Shown: positions 31,006 through 39,668 of the stretch, one piece after another | Numbering within the stretch: position 1 is the first letter of the stretch | How the letters are laid out: each line of letters starts with the position of its first letter | Source of the DNA: an uncultured Candidatus Poseidoniales archaeon | GTDB lineage: Archaea > Thermoplasmatota > Poseidoniia > Poseidoniales > Thalassarchaeaceae | Length of the DNA: 64,000 nucleotides | Reading direction: 5' to 3' | NCBI GenBank assembly: GCA_963934015.1 | Contig: CAWVWT010000002.1 | Location: 81,399 to 145,398 of the forward strand | Notes under the pieces: model-generated | Told to the model about the DNA's origin: nothing | Databases searched by the model: none | Seen by the model: the letters and a program-made list of their open reading frames with translations, nothing else | Made by a program: the position numbers and the translations under genes

Positions 31006-31773
31006 CTACTCATCGACGATTCTTGTACCAATAGTATGGCCATTCTGGATGATTTCATGGATTCGCTCAGTTTGTGTACCATCGACGAACCAAACATGTT
31101 CGACATGTTTCGATATCATAGTAGCCCGTTCAGCTTTGAGGAAAATTCCACCTGTAACATCAATTTCTTCAGAATGTTGCCCTTTAAAATGCATCTTGCT
31201 ATGCCATATTGGTATCAATTCACCTTCCGGTCCAGGTTTTGTCATCAGCCCGGGTGTTTCCCCCATGGCAAAAATGACATGAGTCACATCCGGTAACTCT
31301 AGGCTCAATCGCAGCATCAAATCATCCCCTGATAAAATACCAAAATATTTGGGTGGTTCACAATCTACGACATCGCCAAATGTAATATGAATGCCAGGGT
31401 CGAGAAATTGGCTTAGGTCTCCGATAAATGATGGCCCCGTATTTAGCACAAAATTCCGAGGTGCATGACTTGCGATAGGTACTGCCCTAAGGGGCGCGAT
31501 GACGAGTTGGTGTAGAGCATCCATATCGCTGCGAACTTGCTTTATTGCTTCGTTTTGGTCTATGCCCACAACCGCACCCTCTGCTAATCGGAATTTACGT
31601 GCACGAATATGACCAAACGAACCTGCTCCATGGACAACAACCACATCATGACCCTGGTCGACCAATTGAATTACGCAGTCTGCCAATGCAAGTATTCGAT
31701 CAGTATAGGGCTTGCAGAGGGTCGATTTATCGGAAATCAAACCCCCACCCCATTTCATGATAATGCGGCCCAT
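31006..31773 (-). CDS. Isopentenyl phosphate kinase (amino-acid-kinase fold)
   Basis: MKWGGGLISDK and VVVHGAGSFGH motifs characteristic of IPK. Confidence 0.8.
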   Translation of the reverse strand: MGRIIMKWGGGLISDKSTLCKPYTDRILALADCVIQLVDQGHDVVVVHGAGSFGHIRARKFRLAEGAVVGIDQNEAIKQVRSDMDALHQLVIAPLRAVPIASHAPRNFVLNTGPSFIGDLSQFLDPGIHITFGDVVDCEPPKYFGILSGDDLMLRLSLELPDVTHVIFAMGETPGLMTKPGPEGELIPIWHSKMHFKGQHSEEIDVTGGIFLKAERATMISKHVEHVWFVDGTQTERIHEIIQNGHTIGTRIVDE

Positions 31774-31847
31774 AAAGCCTCTAGGGGGTCACCATTCAAA
31801 GCGATAGCGTCGCTTCATTCATCTAGGAGCCCGATGTTCACCAAAAC

Positions 31848-32174
31848 ATGGGCAAGCCAACTTTAGAGGAATTTCGTCGGTGGTTACAATCCGAAATTAT
31901 GGAAATCGAAGCGCTTGACGGTGGTCCAAATGTGGATAAACGGTTGATCCAATTGGAAATGGCACTGCAAGAAGCAATGGCTTTCAGTGCCGCATGGGAA
32001 TTACGCATGGAATCATCAGTCACGCCCGTCATTCAGGAAAAGGCAGTACGGCTATTATCTGCGAGCCCCGATACCATTAGTAGTTCAGATGGACCTAAGG
32101 GGATCTGCACTGCTTGTGAAACTGAAATCGATGAAGATTTACCTTTTTGCCCCACATGCGGAGAAAACAGATAG
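31848..32174 (+). CDS. Small protein with C-terminal zinc ribbon (hypothetical)
   Basis: ATG start; CTAC..x11..CPTCG at the C-terminus. The stop directly abuts the kptA stop. Confidence 0.45.
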   Translation: MGKPTLEEFRRWLQSEIMEIEALDGGPNVDKRLIQLEMALQEAMAFSAAWELRMESSVTPVIQEKAVRLLSASPDTISSSDGPKGICTACETEIDEDLPFCPTCGENR

Positions 32175-32909
32175 TTACTCTTCTTCCGCCGCCGCCGCCG
32201 CTTCTTCGTGTTCCCATTCTGAAATACGTTCCAGTATTTCGGGGTGGTCCGAATCAACAGTGGCACAATATCGCGCTTCGACTTCTTCCGTCAGATAGAC
32301 AGTTGTACCTGCATGGTATATCGTATCGCCATTAGCTTCCATTTGAATGCAATCAACTTCGATAATCACTGGACGGTGGTGGTGTACATGCCCAGCATTT
32401 GCTGCAGCAGTAACGGTTTTTGAAAGATGGACATGTTTCCGGTCGCCTGGCTTAATTCCATGTTCTAAAAGATGTGCTTCGCCATCAATTGCACATGGGA
32501 AGTACAACAAGTTGGGGGTATCATCAGTTGGTAGATCAAGTTCGATTTCCACGGTATGCGCGTATGTAGCTCGAACCATGTCGCCACGAACATCGTAACG
32601 GCCCTTTGTACATGTTTCACTCACAGCACGAATGTGGTGAGGACGCAGCCAATGCATTCGTCGATCACGCTTGGTCAGTGCTTCAACCATTTCTCTAATA
32701 TCGACCCAACCATTCAAATCCATTTCCAAGTCAAACTTTTCGGGGAAATGGCGCAATATACCGGCCATCCGACGCCCTAAAATGTCACGTTCGCGGTCGC
32801 TCATAATGAATTTTCCTTCATCATTACATGATGGGCAATTCTCTCCATCGAAGAATCCGTGGGACTTACAATCTCTAATCATCGAGCCGGCGACTGGCCT
32901 TACCTTCAT
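32175..32909 (-). CDS. kptA: RNA 2'-phosphotransferase Tpt1/KptA with N-terminal Cys cluster
   Basis: ILRHFPEKF..LNGWVDI, VRATYAHT and RKHVHLS motifs match Tpt1. Extra N-terminal CKSHG..CPSC and C-terminal EEAAAAAEEE tail. Confidence 0.8.
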   Translation of the reverse strand: MKVRPVAGSMIRDCKSHGFFDGENCPSCNDEGKFIMSDRERDILGRRMAGILRHFPEKFDLEMDLNGWVDIREMVEALTKRDRRMHWLRPHHIRAVSETCTKGRYDVRGDMVRATYAHTVEIELDLPTDDTPNLLYFPCAIDGEAHLLEHGIKPGDRKHVHLSKTVTAAANAGHVHHHRPVIIEVDCIQMEANGDTIYHAGTTVYLTEEVEARYCATVDSDHPEILERISEWEHEEAAAAAEEE

Positions 32910-32976: not shown

Positions 32977-34107
32977 ATGCGAGCCGTAATTGGTGGCTAT
33001 ATTCGGACGCCTTTCCAGCGAGCGCATCGGGGAGCACTCAAAGATACAAGACCAGAAGACATGGTATCTTCCTGCATCCGACATACGGTTGCCCAATGCA
33101 ACCAAGGTGACCAAATTGAAGATGTCATGGTCGGCTGCGCCTATCCTGAAGGGGAACAAGGGCTCAATATCGGCCGTATTTCCACATATATGGCTGGACT
33201 TCCAGACACCGTACCAGGTATGACAACAAATCGTTTGTGTGGATCGTCCATGCAAGTCATTCACACAGCAGCAGGTTCTATCGCCATGGGTTCGGGTCAA
33301 GTGTTCATATGCGCAGGTGTCGAATCAATGTCTCGTGTAATGCGAGGTGGATTCAATCGCTCCCCACATCCTAATCTAGAACAATCATATCCTGAGGCCT
33401 ATATTGGAATGGGTATGACGGCTGAAAATTTAGCATTAAGCCATGATATTACTCGCAAAGCACAAGAAGAATTTGCAGCCATTAGTCATTCGAAAGCAAT
33501 TTCCGCCCAGAGGGTCGGTCATTTCAAGGATGAAATCATTCCAGTTGATGGTACTGATTGCCAATTAGACGGATGCATACGTGAGCCCAATCTGGAAAAA
33601 ATGGCTAATTTGAAGCCTGCTTTCATCGAAAATGGTAGTGTCACGGCTGCGACTAGTTCACCACTCACTGATGGTGCCGCAAGTGTCTTCGTTTGCTCTG
33701 ATATATTTGCCATGGAACATAATATCAAGCCCCTAGCCACAATCGTCGCAACCGCTGTAGCTGGTGTTTCACCTGGGATCATGGGTTACGGACCAGTACC
33801 AGCGGCAAACAAAGCCCTATCTCGGGCAGGTTTGTCTTTGGATGATATCGATATTATCGAAATGAATGAAGCCTTTAGCGCACAATCCTTGGCATGCATG
33901 AAAGATATGGAACTAGACATGGATGATTCTAGGATTAATGTTGACGGGGGCGCTTTGGCAATCGGCCATCCACTAGGGGCGAGTGGTTGCCGAATCACTG
34001 GTAAATCTGCTAGTTTATTGCAAAGAACTGGCGGGCAGTATGCGCTTGCGACCATGTGCATTGGTGGCGGCATGGGTATCGCAACAGTGCTTGAGAGATG
34101 GAATTGA
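32977..34107 (+). CDS. Acetyl-CoA C-acetyltransferase (thiolase II, bacterial-like)
   Basis: Active-site NRLCGSSMQ, C-terminal NVDGGALAIGHPLGASG and CIGGGMG motifs. ATG at 32977 chosen because the longer ORF overlaps kptA. Confidence 0.88.
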   Translation: MRAVIGGYIRTPFQRAHRGALKDTRPEDMVSSCIRHTVAQCNQGDQIEDVMVGCAYPEGEQGLNIGRISTYMAGLPDTVPGMTTNRLCGSSMQVIHTAAGSIAMGSGQVFICAGVESMSRVMRGGFNRSPHPNLEQSYPEAYIGMGMTAENLALSHDITRKAQEEFAAISHSKAISAQRVGHFKDEIIPVDGTDCQLDGCIREPNLEKMANLKPAFIENGSVTAATSSPLTDGAASVFVCSDIFAMEHNIKPLATIVATAVAGVSPGIMGYGPVPAANKALSRAGLSLDDIDIIEMNEAFSAQSLACMKDMELDMDDSRINVDGGALAIGHPLGASGCRITGKSASLLQRTGGQYALATMCIGGGMGIATVLERWN

Positions 34108-35156
34108 TTCACAATAGGCTGATATGTTGTAGTCAATGGCGCATCATGGGCTTCGGTATACGTGATGGACGCCGTCAAGCAAAGGAAAACTTGAGTTCCG
34201 ATGAAGAGGGTGACTGCCCACGGTGCAATGGCAGTGCCAATGCATCATCTATTCCTGGTTATCTCCAATGCGCTAGGTGTAAATATGAATGGCAAGATTC
34301 CGATGAGTTATCCTCAGATAAAGGGCCACGTGATTCTATTTCGCGTGATTCAGAGAAACTTGAAGATTTCAAACGTGAAATGTCTGCCGGTGAGGGACTT
34401 GCGCGTGTTTTAGGTGTCGAAGATGGATTGGATGCTGCTCAGAAAGAATCTATGGGGCGATTGCAGGACAAATGGATGAGTGGGATGCATGGGCAATACA
34501 ATGCTGCAGAGGATGAACGCAAACCACTAATGATCGCCTTTGACGATGATGATAATCTTCTCGAAACACAGGTTGGCGCCATTCATATATCGGACAATGT
34601 ATTTGATGGCGGGGAAGAAATTCGAATTGAGTACCCCGGAAGGGGAACTGAATTTTTTGTCATAAATGATGATGATGCTCTTGGATGGAAACGGGGCCGG
34701 ACATTGGAGGAAACTGCACGTAACATAGCGTCGATTATCAACCGCTCCAGTACACTTGTGCATGCATCAGCTGAAGGTACGACCGTGTCTATCGAATTAC
34801 GCGATATTAATCTTGATTCCAATAGTCTAGTAATTTACGTTGACGATCCTGGTGGCAAAAATATGACAGTCGAGCGCTTAGGGGTCATTCTAGATCCTGA
34901 TCAAATACAGGTGTATGAAGACTATCATCAAGTCATCAAGGTTGCATTGGCTGATGGAATCATCACACCAAGTGAAGATCAAATGCTTTGGGCAATGCGC
35001 CAAAATCTTGGCATAACAGATGAAGACCACGTTCGTATCATCCTTGACTTATTTGGCGACGATGCCGTCAAAGAATGTCCAGATTGTAGTGTCAATGTAC
35101 CTCTTTACATTGAGTATAATGCTTGGTGGTGCGAAGGTTGCCAGCAATGGGTTTGA
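34098..35156 (+). CDS. Acidic protein with N- and C-terminal zinc ribbons (hypothetical)
   Basis: CPRCNG..x14..CARC near the N-terminus, CPDC..x14..CEGC at the C-terminus, and DGIITPSEDQMLWAMRQNLGITDEDH (TerB-like helix pair). Start is ambiguous (34098 or 34146). Confidence 0.55.
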   Translation: MELIHNRLICCSQWRIMGFGIRDGRRQAKENLSSDEEGDCPRCNGSANASSIPGYLQCARCKYEWQDSDELSSDKGPRDSISRDSEKLEDFKREMSAGEGLARVLGVEDGLDAAQKESMGRLQDKWMSGMHGQYNAAEDERKPLMIAFDDDDNLLETQVGAIHISDNVFDGGEEIRIEYPGRGTEFFVINDDDALGWKRGRTLEETARNIASIINRSSTLVHASAEGTTVSIELRDINLDSNSLVIYVDDPGGKNMTVERLGVILDPDQIQVYEDYHQVIKVALADGIITPSEDQMLWAMRQNLGITDEDHVRIILDLFGDDAVKECPDCSVNVPLYIEYNAWWCEGCQQWV

Positions 35157-35242
35157 GGATCGAATCCAGAGTGGGAATGGAACAACAAGTTGGGTATGGT
35201 TGAAATACCGGGTGGACTCAGTCACCCCTAGAGGTCGTAGAC

Positions 35243-36268
35243 ATGACAGATGAGACACTTTACATTGGAGTAGACTTGGGGACATTTCGTTCAGTAATGG
35301 TATCCAGTGATGGACACGACGAAAAGGTGCTAACTGTTATTGGTACGCCAAAAGATCAAATTGCTAAGGGTTTCCTCAAGCGCGATGTTCTATTTGGTGA
35401 AGAAGCACTCAAAAACCGCCTCGCCCTCAACTTATTTCGTCCACTGGAACACGGTGTCATCAAAGATACTGCCGAAGACAAAAAATTCATTGCCCATTTC
35501 ATTACGAATATCATTGGGCTGGGAGATCCTGAAGATTACAACCGGGTAGTTGCCGTTATCGGCGCACCAGCTGAAGCTAGTCACGTAGACAAAACTGCTA
35601 TTTTCGATGCTGCTGCAGGCAGTGTGAATGCCTGTATGATTATATCTGAACCATTTGCTGTTGCTTACGCTCTCGATAAGATAGAGCATACGCTAGTCAT
35701 CGATATTGGTGCCGGCACCACTGATCTTTGTCGTGTTTACGGCACCGTGCCTACGCCTAATGACCAAATGCACCTCAATTTCGCTGGTGACCACATCGAC
35801 GCTCAAATCATAGCCGAAATTCAGCGTAAGTATGCCGGTGCTCAAGTCACCAAGGATATGGCACGTCGATGGAAGGAATCTCATTCCTTTGTCGGCGGAG
35901 CAGCACCAGATGACCCCGTAATTGTGGATTTTTCGATAGAAGGCAAGGCAATGTCTCTGGATATCACAGATTGCATCAGTGCAGCATGTGAAACCATTGT
36001 GGAACCAATCGTAGCTAGTGTCAAGGAATTGGTTGCAGGCTCCAATCCGGAATATCATGATGCATTCCGCCGGAATGTGATTCTCGCTGGTGGAGGGTCT
36101 GGAATCATTGGGCTTGGCGATATGATTGAAGAACGACTATCCGATCTTGGTGATGTCGAAGTTCTCACTGTTGAAGACCCATTGGAACTAGGTGCTATGG
36201 GTGGACTCAGATTGGCAATGGAAGTTCCTGAAGATATGTGGAAGAATCTAACTCTTGCACACCGCTAA
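35243..36268 (+). CDS. Actin-fold ATPase, MamK-like
   Basis: Phosphate-1 IGVDLGTFRS, connect-1 AVIGAPA, phosphate-2 LVIDIGAGTTDLC, adenosine VILAGGGSGIIGL, connect-2 EDPLELGAMGGLRLA. GAGGT SD 8 nt upstream of the ATG. Confidence 0.85.
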   Translation: MTDETLYIGVDLGTFRSVMVSSDGHDEKVLTVIGTPKDQIAKGFLKRDVLFGEEALKNRLALNLFRPLEHGVIKDTAEDKKFIAHFITNIIGLGDPEDYNRVVAVIGAPAEASHVDKTAIFDAAAGSVNACMIISEPFAVAYALDKIEHTLVIDIGAGTTDLCRVYGTVPTPNDQMHLNFAGDHIDAQIIAEIQRKYAGAQVTKDMARRWKESHSFVGGAAPDDPVIVDFSIEGKAMSLDITDCISAACETIVEPIVASVKELVAGSNPEYHDAFRRNVILAGGGSGIIGLGDMIEERLSDLGDVEVLTVEDPLELGAMGGLRLAMEVPEDMWKNLTLAHR

Positions 36269-36859
36269 TTACTCTTCTTCACCATAGAGTGCAACGCTAC
36301 TTGCGCCCACTAACTGCATGTTGCATTTCGGACATTTTTCACTTTTATCCAGATTCAACGGTTGCACGGCCAACAAACTACGGCAATGTGGGCAAGATGC
36401 CAACACTTCGTCTGGCTGTAAAGCAATGTTCTGATTTAATGCTGGTGCATCACCATCATACCATGCCCTAAACATTGGGTGTTTAAGCAACCGGAGTCTT
36501 TGCGACATTGACCAGCATAAATACAACAAAAGGAATCCCTGTAAGAAGCCCCAGGCACCGCTAGAATCTTGACTAGCAGTCATAAATTCAACTATCATCA
36601 ATAAAAAACAGAGCCCGATTGCAATCATCCATATTGTCATGACCCACGGTAAAGCCCAACTATCTCTTTGAAAATATCCTCGAACAATCATGATGCAAAA
36701 CGGCAGTGGTAGCAATAATACGACTAAGATAGCCATACCCATAAATGCACCAAAGGATACGAAAAATAAGAAAGCGATTAGTGATAAAGTGAAAATCAAC
36801 ATCATGCCAGATTGACGGTGCGCAAGGGCCAACTGATCAACTTCTAACTCATCGCTCAT
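36269..36859 (-). CDS. 4-TM membrane protein with C-terminal zinc ribbon (hypothetical)
   Basis: ATG start. Four hydrophobic segments, then CPHC..x16..CPKC. The stop abuts the stop of the actin-like gene. Confidence 0.5.
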   Translation of the reverse strand: MSDELEVDQLALAHRQSGMMLIFTLSLIAFLFFVSFGAFMGMAILVVLLLPLPFCIMIVRGYFQRDSWALPWVMTIWMIAIGLCFLLMIVEFMTASQDSSGAWGFLQGFLLLYLCWSMSQRLRLLKHPMFRAWYDGDAPALNQNIALQPDEVLASCPHCRSLLAVQPLNLDKSEKCPKCNMQLVGASSVALYGEEE

Positions 36860-36947: not shown

Positions 36948-38120
36948 ATGACCCGCGATATCGATGTTGATACTCGCAGCACTGCGCTTGCAGGTAAACA
37001 CATTGCATTGGGTATTACCGGTGGTATCGCAGCAACTGAAACTGTCAAACTTTGCCGTGAATTACGCCGGCATGGTGCCGCTGTAACCACTATCATGACC
37101 ACGGCTGCCACCAAAGTGATTACTCCACTGGCGGTAGAATGGGCATCTCAGGGTAGCGTAATCACCGAGTGGACCGCTGAAATGTCACAATTGAGTCAAT
37201 TTGATGCACTGCTCATTGCGCCAGCATCCCGAAATTTCATCTCCCGATATGTAAATGGGATGATGGATCATCCACTGCTGATGAGTTGTTCGGCTGCTCG
37301 AAGTCGTTCAACACCCGTCGTAATGGTGCCCTCAATGCATAGCGATTTGTTTGATGACCCGGTTACACAAGATCTCCTCAAGCGCTTAGATGGTGAGTCT
37401 GTAATCTTGGGGCCGTTTGAAGAGGGTCGTTACAAACAACCAAACCCGGTTCAAATCGTAGCTGAATTATGTCAAGTTGTAAATTTTAATCAAAATTCGA
37501 TACATATTGCGATTACGCTCGGAGCGAATCGAGCACCTATTGATTCTGTGCGAGCAATTCAGAATGCTTCTAGCGGTGAAACTGGTTGGTATATTGCTGA
37601 ATATTTGTATCGATTTGGACACCAAATCACCGTCATTGCTGGAAAAACTAGTGCGTATCCATCATTCAATTTGCCGACGGTAATACGCGCAGGCACTCCT
37701 GATGAAATGTTGGCCGCCTGTGTCGATACAGCGAAATCAAAGCCTAGAGCGTGGATTCATGCCGCAGCAGTATTAGATTACTACACGAAACCCTTGCGCG
37801 GTAAGAAAAAGAGTGGTTCGGATTGTTGGGAATTAAATTTACAACCAGGTCCAAAGCACATCGCAGAGCTAGACCAATATGTGGGCACAGCAAAGCGTAT
37901 TGGATTCAAACTTGAAACAGGAGTAACGGTGGATGAATTACACTCTAGGGCCCTCGAGCAAATTTCGCAGTATGGTGTAGATGCAACTGTCGCCAATATC
38001 ATGGAGAAAATGCACGATTTTGATACACCTAGAGCCTATTTTGTCACCAGTGAGGCAATCACCGAGTTGGCTGACATGGATGCGATGTGCAATTCGATTT
38101 TAGGCGTCTTAATGCAATGA
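36948..38120 (+). CDS. coaBC: Bifunctional phosphopantothenoylcysteine decarboxylase / phosphopantothenate-cysteine ligase
   Basis: Flavoprotein N-domain KHIALGITGGIAATETVKL and DFP C-domain. ATG at 36948 preferred because the listed 36858 start overlaps the divergent gene. Confidence 0.8.
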   Translation: MTRDIDVDTRSTALAGKHIALGITGGIAATETVKLCRELRRHGAAVTTIMTTAATKVITPLAVEWASQGSVITEWTAEMSQLSQFDALLIAPASRNFISRYVNGMMDHPLLMSCSAARSRSTPVVMVPSMHSDLFDDPVTQDLLKRLDGESVILGPFEEGRYKQPNPVQIVAELCQVVNFNQNSIHIAITLGANRAPIDSVRAIQNASSGETGWYIAEYLYRFGHQITVIAGKTSAYPSFNLPTVIRAGTPDEMLAACVDTAKSKPRAWIHAAAVLDYYTKPLRGKKKSGSDCWELNLQPGPKHIAELDQYVGTAKRIGFKLETGVTVDELHSRALEQISQYGVDATVANIMEKMHDFDTPRAYFVTSEAITELADMDAMCNSILGVLMQ

Positions 38121-38174: not shown

Positions 38175-39668
38175 ATGGCAGACCATGGGAAGGCGAAGCG
38201 TGGCATCCCCCCAAAGTCTGACTTCAATGCTTGGTACCCAGCTATTGTTGAAATTGCCGAACTGGTTGATAAGCGATATCCAATCAAGGGAATGGATGTA
38301 TGGAGGCCCTACGGATGGAAGGCAATGCGTTGCATCGATGCCCTAACCCATTCAGAAATGGAACGCACTGATCACGAAGAAGTACGATTCCCATTATTAA
38401 TCCCTGAAGATTTGCTTGAAAAGGAAAATCGGCTGGTGTCACGGCTCAAACGTGCGCGTGAGGAGGACGTTGACCCCAGTGAACTTCGGGACGATGAAGA
38501 AGAAGCTGGTTTCAAGAAAGAAGTGTATTGGGTTAAACATGCGGGAGAGACTGATCTCGAAGTCCCTATGTTCTTGCGACCAACTAGTGAAACTGCGATG
38601 TACACCATGTTTCCACTCTGGATTCGAAGCCATGCAGATTTACCATTAAAGACATATCAAATTGTCAACACATTTCGTTATGAAACCAAACAAACGCGCT
38701 CTTTTATTAGAGTACGTGAAATTCATTTCTTCGAGGCACATACAGCTCACGCCGACGAAGATTGCGCATCTCGACAAATAGAGGAAGACTTGGAAATTGT
38801 TTCTCGATTAATGGGTAGTATGTCACTTCCAGTGATTATTTCCAAACGTCCCGTCTGGGACACGTTTCCCGGTGCATGGTATACAATTGCGATAGATGTA
38901 ATCATGCCAAATGGTCGAACCTTACAAGTCGCATCATGTCACCATTACAAAGATCAGTGGGCCAAAGCATTCGATATTACATATCAAGACGCGGACGGAG
39001 GCACTCAGTATTGCCACCAGACGACATATGGGATGTCCGAACGTTTACTTGGGTCGGTAGTCGGTATGCATGGTGATGATAACGGACTCATATTCCCGCC
39101 ACAAATTGCCCCCATACAAGTTGTATTAATGCCTGTTGCTGCACATAAAAATCCATCTATAACCAAGGCTGTTGATGCTGCTGCTGCCGAGTTGCGAGGT
39201 TCAGGATATAGAGTCAAAATCGATGCACGAGATTTACGCCCAGGTCAGAAATATTGGGATTGGGAAATCAAAGGTGTCCCACTTCGATTAGAAATTGGAC
39301 CTAGAGATGTTGAAAATGGCAATGCATTTGCAGCACGTCGGACGGGTGGAAAAGAGCCGATTCCACTTGACAATATAGTGGAAGGTGTGCGAGGACAACT
39401 CGAATTGGTTCATACCGAACTAACCAATCGGAGCCAGGCACACATCAGTGATTGCATCATCCGCTTAGAAAACATGGACCAAGAAATCAATGATGGCCAT
39501 ATTTACGAAGTTGCTTTTGACGGAACCGATGCAGATGCCGAAGTCTTGGAAAAATCGACAGGATTGACAATTCTCGGTGATGCCATGGCGGGATTTTCCG
39601 AGGATCAGATTTGTATCGCTACCGGTAAATCAACCCGGCGTAAGCAGCATCTAGCTAGAATGTATTAA
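38175..39668 (+). CDS. proS: Prolyl-tRNA synthetase (archaeal/eukaryal type)
   Basis: FNAWYPAIVEIAELVDKRYPIKG N-terminus, class II motifs, and a C-terminal domain ending in Y as in archaeal ProRS. Confidence 0.9.
   Translation: MADHGKAKRGIPPKSDFNAWYPAIVEIAELVDKRYPIKGMDVWRPYGWKAMRCIDALTHSEMERTDHEEVRFPLLIPEDLLEKENRLVSRLKRAREEDVDPSELRDDEEEAGFKKEVYWVKHAGETDLEVPMFLRPTSETAMYTMFPLWIRSHADLPLKTYQIVNTFRYETKQTRSFIRVREIHFFEAHTAHADEDCASRQIEEDLEIVSRLMGSMSLPVIISKRPVWDTFPGAWYTIAIDVIMPNGRTLQVASCHHYKDQWAKAFDITYQDADGGTQYCHQTTYGMSERLLGSVVGMHGDDNGLIFPPQIAPIQVVLMPVAAHKNPSITKAVDAAAAELRGSGYRVKIDARDLRPGQKYWDWEIKGVPLRLEIGPRDVENGNAFAARRTGGKEPIPLDNIVEGVRGQLELVHTELTNRSQAHISDCIIRLENMDQEINDGHIYEVAFDGTDADAEVLEKSTGLTILGDAMAGFSEDQICIATGKSTRRKQHLARMY

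Follow-up and report, generated by a model that had tools for sequence, protein, structure and literature searches.

Actin genes of prokaryotes usually adjoin genes for partner proteins, as in ParM/ParR, AlfA/AlfB, MamK/MamJ, crenactin/arcadins and MreB/MreCD. Here we analyse an actin gene and its neighbours in a stretch of 64,000 nucleotides, called the window throughout, from an uncultured Candidatus Poseidoniales archaeon (assembly GCA_963934015.1, contig CAWVWT010000002.1, positions 81,399 to 145,398 of the forward strand). The order Poseidoniales is Marine Group II (MGII), and its Thalassarchaeaceae side, from which the window comes, is MGIIb. Marine Group II archaea are uncultured. In surface seawater they are the commonest archaea and rank with the most numerous microbes overall, and to our knowledge their cell biology is essentially unknown. 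In the window a MamK-like actin gene is preceded by the gene for an acidic protein with two zinc ribbons (A) and followed by a convergent gene for a zinc-ribbon membrane protein (C). An earlier reading of the same DNA from its letters and open reading frames (ORFs), referred to as the original prediction, had joined the three genes into one cytoskeletal module. Our comparison of related loci points to a smaller unit: A and actin are neighbours in nearly every locus, while C stays with the CoA biosynthesis gene CoaBC. We tentatively favour the reading that A serves an archaeal MamK-family filament as a lineage-specific accessory protein and that C belongs with CoaBC.

MamK-related actins outside magnetotactic bacteria, with BeeR and salactin as the current examples, are an active topic. 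BeeR is a MamK-related three-stranded tubular actin, 25-30% identical to MamK, with a disordered N-terminal domain as its hallmark (PMC11929497). The nearest family of salactin is MamK (PMC10746226). CorMR is described as a chromosomal pair derived from ParM/ParR that serves cell shape (10.1101/2025.06.27.661541).

The locus in the window resembles the MamK/MamJ system in that the closest solved relative of the actin is MamK, with the same ATPase motifs, and a soluble acidic protein is encoded alongside. It differs from the MamK system (MamJ, MamY, McaA/McaB) in that the actin scores below the curated cut-off, is archaeal and has no magnetosome genes nearby, and in that the membrane-protein neighbour C is not stably linked to it. 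Protein A carries zinc ribbons and has nothing in common with MamJ, LimJ, MamY or McaAB in sequence, repeat structure or fold, so that the likening of A to MamJ as an acidic adaptor is an analogy. BeeR, found in Verrucomicrobiota, is likewise a MamK-related actin of a non-magnetotactic organism and the second-best match in NCBIfam and the PDB (its cellular function is unknown), but the actin of Poseidoniales lies nearer to MamK and lacks an N-terminal extension. In the crenactin/arcadin system of Thermoproteales an archaeal actin also lies beside lineage-specific accessory genes of otherwise unknown family; however, the crenactin hidden Markov model (HMM) gives our actin only 13 bits, the arcadins are unrelated to A, and their operon-like cluster contrasts with the separate promoter-like boxes found here. 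ParM/ParR and CorMR are two-gene units of an actin-like ATPase and a small adaptor, whereas A is an acidic protein encoded upstream, with zinc ribbons in place of a ribbon-helix-helix fold, and centromere repeats are absent. Salactin and volactin (Haloarchaea/Methanotecta) are euryarchaeal actin homologs too, but our actin falls far short of the cut-offs of their HMMs (salactin 59 vs 400 bits, Pfam Volactin 28.9 vs 35) and no A-like partner has been described for them. The Poseidoniales pair resembles MamK/MamJ, crenactin/arcadins and ParM/ParR in logic only, and A is unrelated to their partners. The searchable literature yielded no description of the Poseidoniales actin or of A, in agreement with the original prediction that nothing of the kind is described for planktonic Euryarchaeota.

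Gene order around the actin gene

The three genes are located in the window as follows.

34146..35156, forward strand: gene A from its homolog-supported start, 336 aa, acidic double zinc-ribbon protein
34098..35156, forward strand: ORF of gene A in the mechanical listing, 352 aa
35243..36268, forward strand: MamK-like actin gene, 341 aa
36269..36859, reverse strand: gene C, membrane protein with four transmembrane helices and a zinc ribbon, 196 aa

Gene A and the actin gene are separated by 86 nt and the actin stop (36268) abuts the stop of the convergent gene C (36269), so that the layout given by the original prediction agrees with the mechanical ORF listing. The ORFs of A, actin and C are intact in ~100-155 loci each. 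Poor conservation or non-coding-like evolution of the flanking ORFs, which had been named as a possible objection, was not what we observed: for the 10 pairs with unsaturated synonymous distances the ratio of non-synonymous to synonymous substitution rates (dN/dS) was 0.046 for A, 0.027 for actin and 0.068 for C (0.052 for CoaBC), i.e. 0.03-0.07 overall. A, actin and C are thus real coding genes under purifying selection.

We compared gene order in two sets of loci, mapping the neighbouring genes by tblastn. The actin-anchored set consists of the best 80 species-representative genome loci (L007-L086), all of them from Poseidoniales, and the A-anchored set of 80 metagenome contigs (L087-L166). 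Gene A lies directly 5' of the actin gene on the same strand in 79/80 species-representative loci and in all 68 of the 68 A-anchored metagenome loci, with a gap of 66-240 nt, and this part of the neighbourhood check suggested by the original prediction was passed. The sole exception is L049, a single-cell amplified genome (SAG), in which Tpt1, thiolase and A are inverted; amplification chimeras are a known risk in such genomes. L049 is filed as 'Deltaproteobacteria bacterium AH-558-G13' and L048, a metagenome-assembled genome (MAG), as 'Yoonia sp.', though both are typical Poseidoniales loci, and these odd species labels probably reflect mis-binning or contamination.

The pair is kept although the genes on both sides of it vary. 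For the 67 A-anchored loci concerned, the upstream neighbour of A is thiolase in 33, an uncharacterised gene that we call X266 in 21 and Tpt1 in 13. Downstream of actin we found C, DUF2071, DUF1295, a 226-aa membrane protein or Zn108/IPK. Two independent MAGs (L032 and L040) share an inversion of Tpt1-thiolase-A-actin with breakpoints at Zn108|Tpt1 and actin|C, which keeps A and actin together. The neighbouring genes in the window are:

31006..31773, reverse strand: IPK, gene with the AA-kinase fold, taken as isopentenyl phosphate kinase
31848..32174, forward strand: Zn108, 108-aa zinc-ribbon protein
32175..32909, reverse strand: Tpt1, RNA 2'-phosphotransferase
end at 34107, forward strand: thiolase gene, 38 nt before gene A
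~36948..38120, forward strand: CoaBC, CoA biosynthesis gene
38175..39668, forward strand: ProRS, prolyl-tRNA synthetase gene

Further observations concern this neighbourhood. It is rich in isoprenoid and CoA genes, with thiolase, the putative IPK, a fusion of NUDIX and polyprenyl synthetase domains, and CoaBC (in the window and upstream in L001 and L004), and the actin pair is set within this stretch of lipid-precursor genes. Zn108 is acidic (pI, the isoelectric point, 4.34), has a C-terminal zinc ribbon and lies between IPK and Tpt1 in almost every locus. CxxC..CxxC motifs occur in 6/57 ORFs of the window, and three of these six lie within one 5-kb stretch that includes Zn108 (31848-32174). 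With the motif this frequent, the ribbons shared by A and C are weak evidence of a module. X266 encodes 266 aa without a Pfam hit and, in MGIIa, separates gene A from a thiolase of the Thiolase_C_1 type (L004 5155-5955; ~70 Poseidoniaceae loci); by eye, its C-terminus resembles the OB fold of the DUF35 thiolase-associated proteins. We found no homolog of X266 in the window.

The actin, protein A and their upstream elements

The original prediction had called the actin MamK-like, and all comparisons agree with this. The NCBIfam model for MamK (NF040964) matches residues 6-337 of 341 with 362 bits, compared to 219 bits for BeeR, 88 for MreB, 59 for salactin and 13 for crenactin. The closest PDB matches are the MamK structures 5ljw, 5ljv and 5jyg (E 2e-70), followed by BeeR 8r2n (E 1e-44) and MreB (E 1e-13), and BLASTP aligns the actin with MamK colinearly over 332 residues with 37% identity and 3 gap positions. 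As the score stays below the curated cut-off of 400 bits while MamK is the nearest family, the protein is, by these profile scores, MamK-like and not a curated MamK. No magnetosome (mam) genes are found within ~6 kb; the neighbours are thiolase, Tpt1, IPK, CoaBC and ProRS. The nucleotide-binding motifs are invariant: DLGT (phosphate-1), SEPF, DIGAGTTD (phosphate-2) and GGGS (adenosine). Across Poseidoniales the actin is 77-98% identical, and no other gene nearby evolves as slowly (mean distance 0.195 compared to 0.50-1.43 for the neighbours).

We also considered MreB and rejected it, since NF010539 reaches 87.7 of the required 293 bits and TIGR00904 80 of 366, and mreCD neighbours are absent. 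The Pfam MreB_Mbl match (88.8 bits) reflects the general fold family only. Judged by these scores and the missing mreCD, the public labels 'rod shape-determining protein MreB' on this gene are over-specific, and the analysis corrects such routine annotations.

Protein A begins later than its ORF. The start of more than 100 homologs always falls on Met17, i.e. nt 34146, and a conserved promoter-like box (34115-34126) lies 3' of the first ATG, so that the protein has 336 aa and not the 350 aa stated originally. A word-indexed search returned 297 homologs. The best 120, which were listed, are 51-100% identical, and every named one among those listed is assigned to MGII, to Poseidoniales or to an unclassified 'Euryarchaeota/Thermoplasmatota' MAG. 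HMMER searches of 1.84 billion cluster representatives yielded only one other full-length representative (P0197, 52% identity), the remaining matches being fragments or proteins that share only residues ~253-335; in this exhaustive search no full-length relative outside Poseidoniales was found. On this sequence evidence, protein A is confined to Poseidoniales. Neither A nor C has a Pfam or NCBIfam match above threshold, which bears out their description as proteins of no recognisable family. Changes accumulate more slowly in A (mean distance 0.50) than in CoaBC (0.66) or IPK (0.80). A had been described as strongly acidic. This holds, as its pI is 4.36, its net charge -33 and every segment acidic, though the property distinguishes it little in a local proteome where actin has a pI of 4.69, the median of the window is 5.45 and one third of the long ORFs are below pI 5.

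The anatomy of A was derived from an alignment of 56 homologs and an AlphaFold2 (AF2) model with a mean predicted local distance difference test (pLDDT) score of 69.6. We found no internal repeats, whereas an acidic repetitive (CAR) domain is a mark of MamJ-like adaptors. The elements are:

34215..34280, forward strand: N-terminal zinc ribbon (C24, C27, C42, C45), CxxC-14-CxxC, invariant in the 56 homologs
34500..34556, forward strand: invariant motif NAAEEERKPLMIxFDDDDN, residues 119-137, within a segment predicted disordered
34566..34895, forward strand: central alpha/beta domain, residues 141-250, with invariant FDGGEExRxEYPGxGTEF and DDPGG, pLDDT 75-88
34914..35063, forward strand: three-helix segment, residues 257-306, with one TerB/Tic110/ENT-like helical-hairpin repeat DGIITPSEDQMLWAMRQNLGI and the signature 'DGIITPSEDQMLW...LGI...H'
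35076..35141, forward strand: C-terminal zinc ribbon (C311, C314, C329, C332) of the CPxC..YxxWWCxxC type, CxxC-14-CxxC, invariant in the 56 homologs

All eight cysteines are thus invariant, and the ribbons at both termini stand as originally described. The N-terminal ribbon is preceded by a short basic helix, is predicted to form three short strands (pLDDT ~75) and weakly resembles the L37Ae and IS1595 ribbons. It is followed by a helical region (residues 65-115) and then by a segment (residues 113-140) with pLDDT values of only 27-40, dropping to 27-34 in the motif stretch itself. In spite of this predicted disorder, A121, R125, P127, L128, F132, D133 and N137 are invariant, and we consider the motif a candidate for partner binding. 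For the central domain the HMMER search found no sequence relatives outside the A family. When the model was compared with the PDB by Foldseek, the only matches were weak ones, to domains inserted in phage tail sheath, T7-like tail tube and flagellin proteins (best E 1.7e-4, TM score 0.23), and the domain is novel.

The TerB-like element of the original prediction is not a TerB domain. The match to PF05099 reaches 21.5 bits where 24.4 are required and covers profile positions 81-115 of 118 (35 residues); the same stretch also matches ENT and Tic110 repeats. It represents a single unit of a two-helix repeat that is widespread among proteins. When the profile of A was run against PDB sequences, the only matches resembled the L37Ae ribbon and the Tic110 repeat, with E values of 0.02 or weaker. 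Many uncharacterised proteins (P0234, P0248, P0266, P0250) contain the hairpin 'Y..L..AL.DG.I...E...L..LR..LGI....H' and the ribbon 'CPxC..YxxWxCxxC' in combination or as arrays. Among them are a tetratricopeptide repeat protein with seven ribbons of the C-terminal type (P0234) and winged helix-turn-helix proteins with three hairpins (P0248, P0266), and the C-terminal modules of A also occur in a Ser/Thr kinase (P0264) and a small protein encoded downstream of an MscS channel (P0277). Hairpin and ribbon may together form an undescribed interaction module.

Upstream of A and of actin we identified the following elements.

34115..34126, forward strand: promoter-like box TAGGCTGATATG, ~-31..-20 from the start codon of A
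35198..35211, forward strand: conserved block GGTTGAAATACCGG in the gap between A and actin; its box TTGAAATA begins at -43 from the actin ATG
35230..35234, forward strand: Shine-Dalgarno-like AGAGG, -13..-9 from the actin ATG

The A/T-rich box before A is conserved in position whichever gene lies upstream, reading CTGATATG in MGIIb and TTCATAGAAA or TTCAAAAG in MGIIa. The block GGTTGAAATACCGG occurs exactly once in the window and is invariant among MGIIb relatives though the intergenic sequence around it has diverged; at the same position other lineages have TTGATATA, TTCATAAG or TTCATAAA. Since the gap between A and actin showed no Rfam match and no unusual RNA stability (z = 0.47), we prefer a promoter reading for this block. 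The Shine-Dalgarno position of actin is occupied by AGAGG, GGTGAG or GGCGAG, and the Shine-Dalgarno-like element CCCCTAGAGG is common to the upstream regions of actin and IPK (IPK: 31774-31810). TATA-like boxes (TGATAT, TTGAAATA and TTCATA) were noted at conserved positions in all three upstream regions (34115-34126, 35198-35234 and 31774-31810). The boxes before A and actin appear to be separate TATA-like promoter elements. The conserved boxes and leaders could offer a first view of promoter and leader architecture in Poseidoniales.

Protein C and the CoaBC gene

The description of C as a protein with four transmembrane helices and a C-terminal ribbon is borne out by its AF2 model (pLDDT 78.9), in which four helices are followed by the ribbon. 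C has 76 homologs, and its ribbon cysteines C156, C159, C176 and C179 are invariant. The positive charges in the loops suggest that the ribbon is cytoplasmic. At the C-terminus we observed an EEE tail (36269-36280) with invariant E194 and E196 and a nearly invariant E195, present in both MGII families, including the orthologs in L004 (Poseidoniaceae) and in L001; it looks like a docking peptide. Foldseek found nothing for C beyond a generic ribbon.

The gene for C is adjacent to actin in 38/75 species representatives. The higher count in the A-anchored loci (56/57) comes from a metagenome set in which closer relatives of the window are over-represented. C and CoaBC, in contrast, form a divergent pair in 43/44 species representatives, the lone exception being a partial high-scoring segment pair, and in 55/55 A-anchored loci. 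Stretches of 2-5 kb are inserted between actin and C in L056, L062, L070, L080, L081 and L082. A further 29 loci, most of them from Poseidonia, have no C and no CoaBC in the downstream sequence present (1-6 kb), and there actin is followed by DUF2071, transaldolase, DUF1295, sirtuin or other genes. C also evolves fastest (distance 1.43), and its rate covariation with actin is the lowest of the 21 gene pairs compared (-0.20). As C and CoaBC move as a unit while actin and C part, the trio is not a conserved module, contrary to the original prediction, and C probably belongs with CoaBC rather than with the actin unit. We see no obvious explanation for the strict tie between a zinc-ribbon membrane protein and a CoA biosynthesis gene.

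Weighing the explanations

The evidence for a functional link between A and actin is moderate, and several observations weigh against our preferred reading. Control pairs of apparently unrelated genes are as conserved as A-actin (IPK-Zn108 in 61/62 species representatives and 53/53 A-anchored loci, Zn108-Tpt1 in 60/63 and 55/55), so that adjacency discriminates poorly within the order and is weak evidence of a functional link there. All loci are from Poseidoniales and hold no outgroup and no independent gain or loss event on which co-occurrence could be judged. A mirror-tree analysis with partial correlation (64 loci, 7 genes, 21 gene pairs) gave an unremarkable rate covariation for A-actin (partial r 0.24, mid-range of the 21 pairs), which we treated as uninformative because actin is too conserved. 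Each of the two genes has its own promoter-like box, which weakens a strict operon model, and the gap between them is long for an archaeal operon. Furthermore the Foldseek search against the PDB gave no structural match of A to any known actin-binding protein, and the C-terminal module of A was beside an actin gene in none of the three other loci looked up (P0239, P0277, P0264). The controls, the separate boxes, the lack of special covariation and the promiscuity of modules that elsewhere are not associated with actin would all suit inherited synteny without a functional link, with actin acting alone or with partners encoded elsewhere and A an independent, conserved protein whose gene sits by chance upstream, among housekeeping genes (isoprenoid, CoA and tRNA) in a region that rearranges slowly. 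We consider this, the main rival, quite possible. What speaks against it is that two repeatedly rearranged junctions flank the pair, yet the pair was split at most once, in the SAG; that A and actin have the same phyletic range; and that actin-like genes as a rule adjoin their partners.

The remaining explanations fit less well. If the original trio were right, an actin filament would be combined with A as soluble acidic adaptor and with C as a membrane anchor that tethers it through the cytoplasmic ribbon or the EEE tail. The three genes are indeed contiguous in Thalassarchaeaceae-like and many Poseidoniaceae loci, and the invariant acidic tail of C resembles a docking motif, but C and actin are apart in roughly half of the species representatives, C always moves together with CoaBC, unrelated genes follow actin where C is absent, and C is convergent besides evolving fastest and covarying least with actin. 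We therefore regard the trio as unlikely, and the attractive picture of filament, adaptor and anchor is not sustained by the comparative analysis. Still less probable is a segregation machine like ParMRC, with A as a nucleic-acid-binding adaptor that links DNA to the filament through a zinc ribbon. Pairs of actin and adaptor are the rule in type II partition, the basic helix and N-terminal ribbon of A are weakly like the L37Ae and IS1595 ribbons, and salactin, an archaeal MamK relative, affects chromosome partitioning (PMC10746226). Yet A is acidic throughout without a helix-turn-helix or ribbon-helix-helix fold, neither iterons nor centromere-like repeats occur at the locus or close to it, parMR has its two genes in the reverse order and the context is one of chromosomal housekeeping genes. 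Membership in type II (ParMRC) itself was rejected: the ParM HMM gives the actin 15.9 bits, the candidate adaptor is upstream and acidic, and there are no repeat arrays. We give hardly any credence to the idea that the partner of A is the upstream thiolase rather than actin, with A acting as a DUF35-like zinc-ribbon scaffold in the archaeal thiolase/HMG-CoA synthase complex. DUF35 proteins do carry an N-terminal ribbon, and a thiolase gene is directly 5' of A in about half of the A-anchored loci (33/67), as in the window. A has, however, no DUF35 or OB-fold match, 13 loci have A beside Tpt1 without thiolase, X266 intervenes in 21 and itself looks (by eye) like the DUF35-type partner, and the two arrangements have different thiolase paralogs, which share 21% identity.

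The conserved unit is the two-gene A-actin pair and not the trio. Under the preferred reading the MamK-family actin, universal in Poseidoniales, would form filaments in an ATP-dependent manner, and A would be a dedicated accessory factor presumed to contact it. Polymer or monomer may be bound through the novel central domain or through the invariant disordered EERKPLxIxFDDDDN motif, while the two ribbons and the TerB-like hairpin, as promiscuous interaction modules, may couple the filament to another partner or regulate its assembly. The A transcript would be nearly leaderless and that of actin would have a short leader with a Shine-Dalgarno element. Given their apparently separate promoters, the two genes are probably co-regulated neighbours that are not obligatorily co-transcribed. 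Somewhat doubtful, in our view, is the wider claim of an undescribed archaeal cytoskeletal system, in which a MamK-family filament is nucleated, regulated or tethered by A as a new zinc-ribbon family of actin-binding proteins; membrane coupling via C would then be possible in part of the order.

A universal actin whose gene also evolves more slowly than all its neighbours suggests that the filament system is important, and the Poseidoniales protein resembles bacterial MamK more closely than do BeeR and salactin. Its order-specific neighbour A is a concrete candidate for a new class of actin-associated protein. If the proposed system is real, its role in these archaea, the most abundant in the plankton, could lie in organising cell shape, division or an intracellular cargo.

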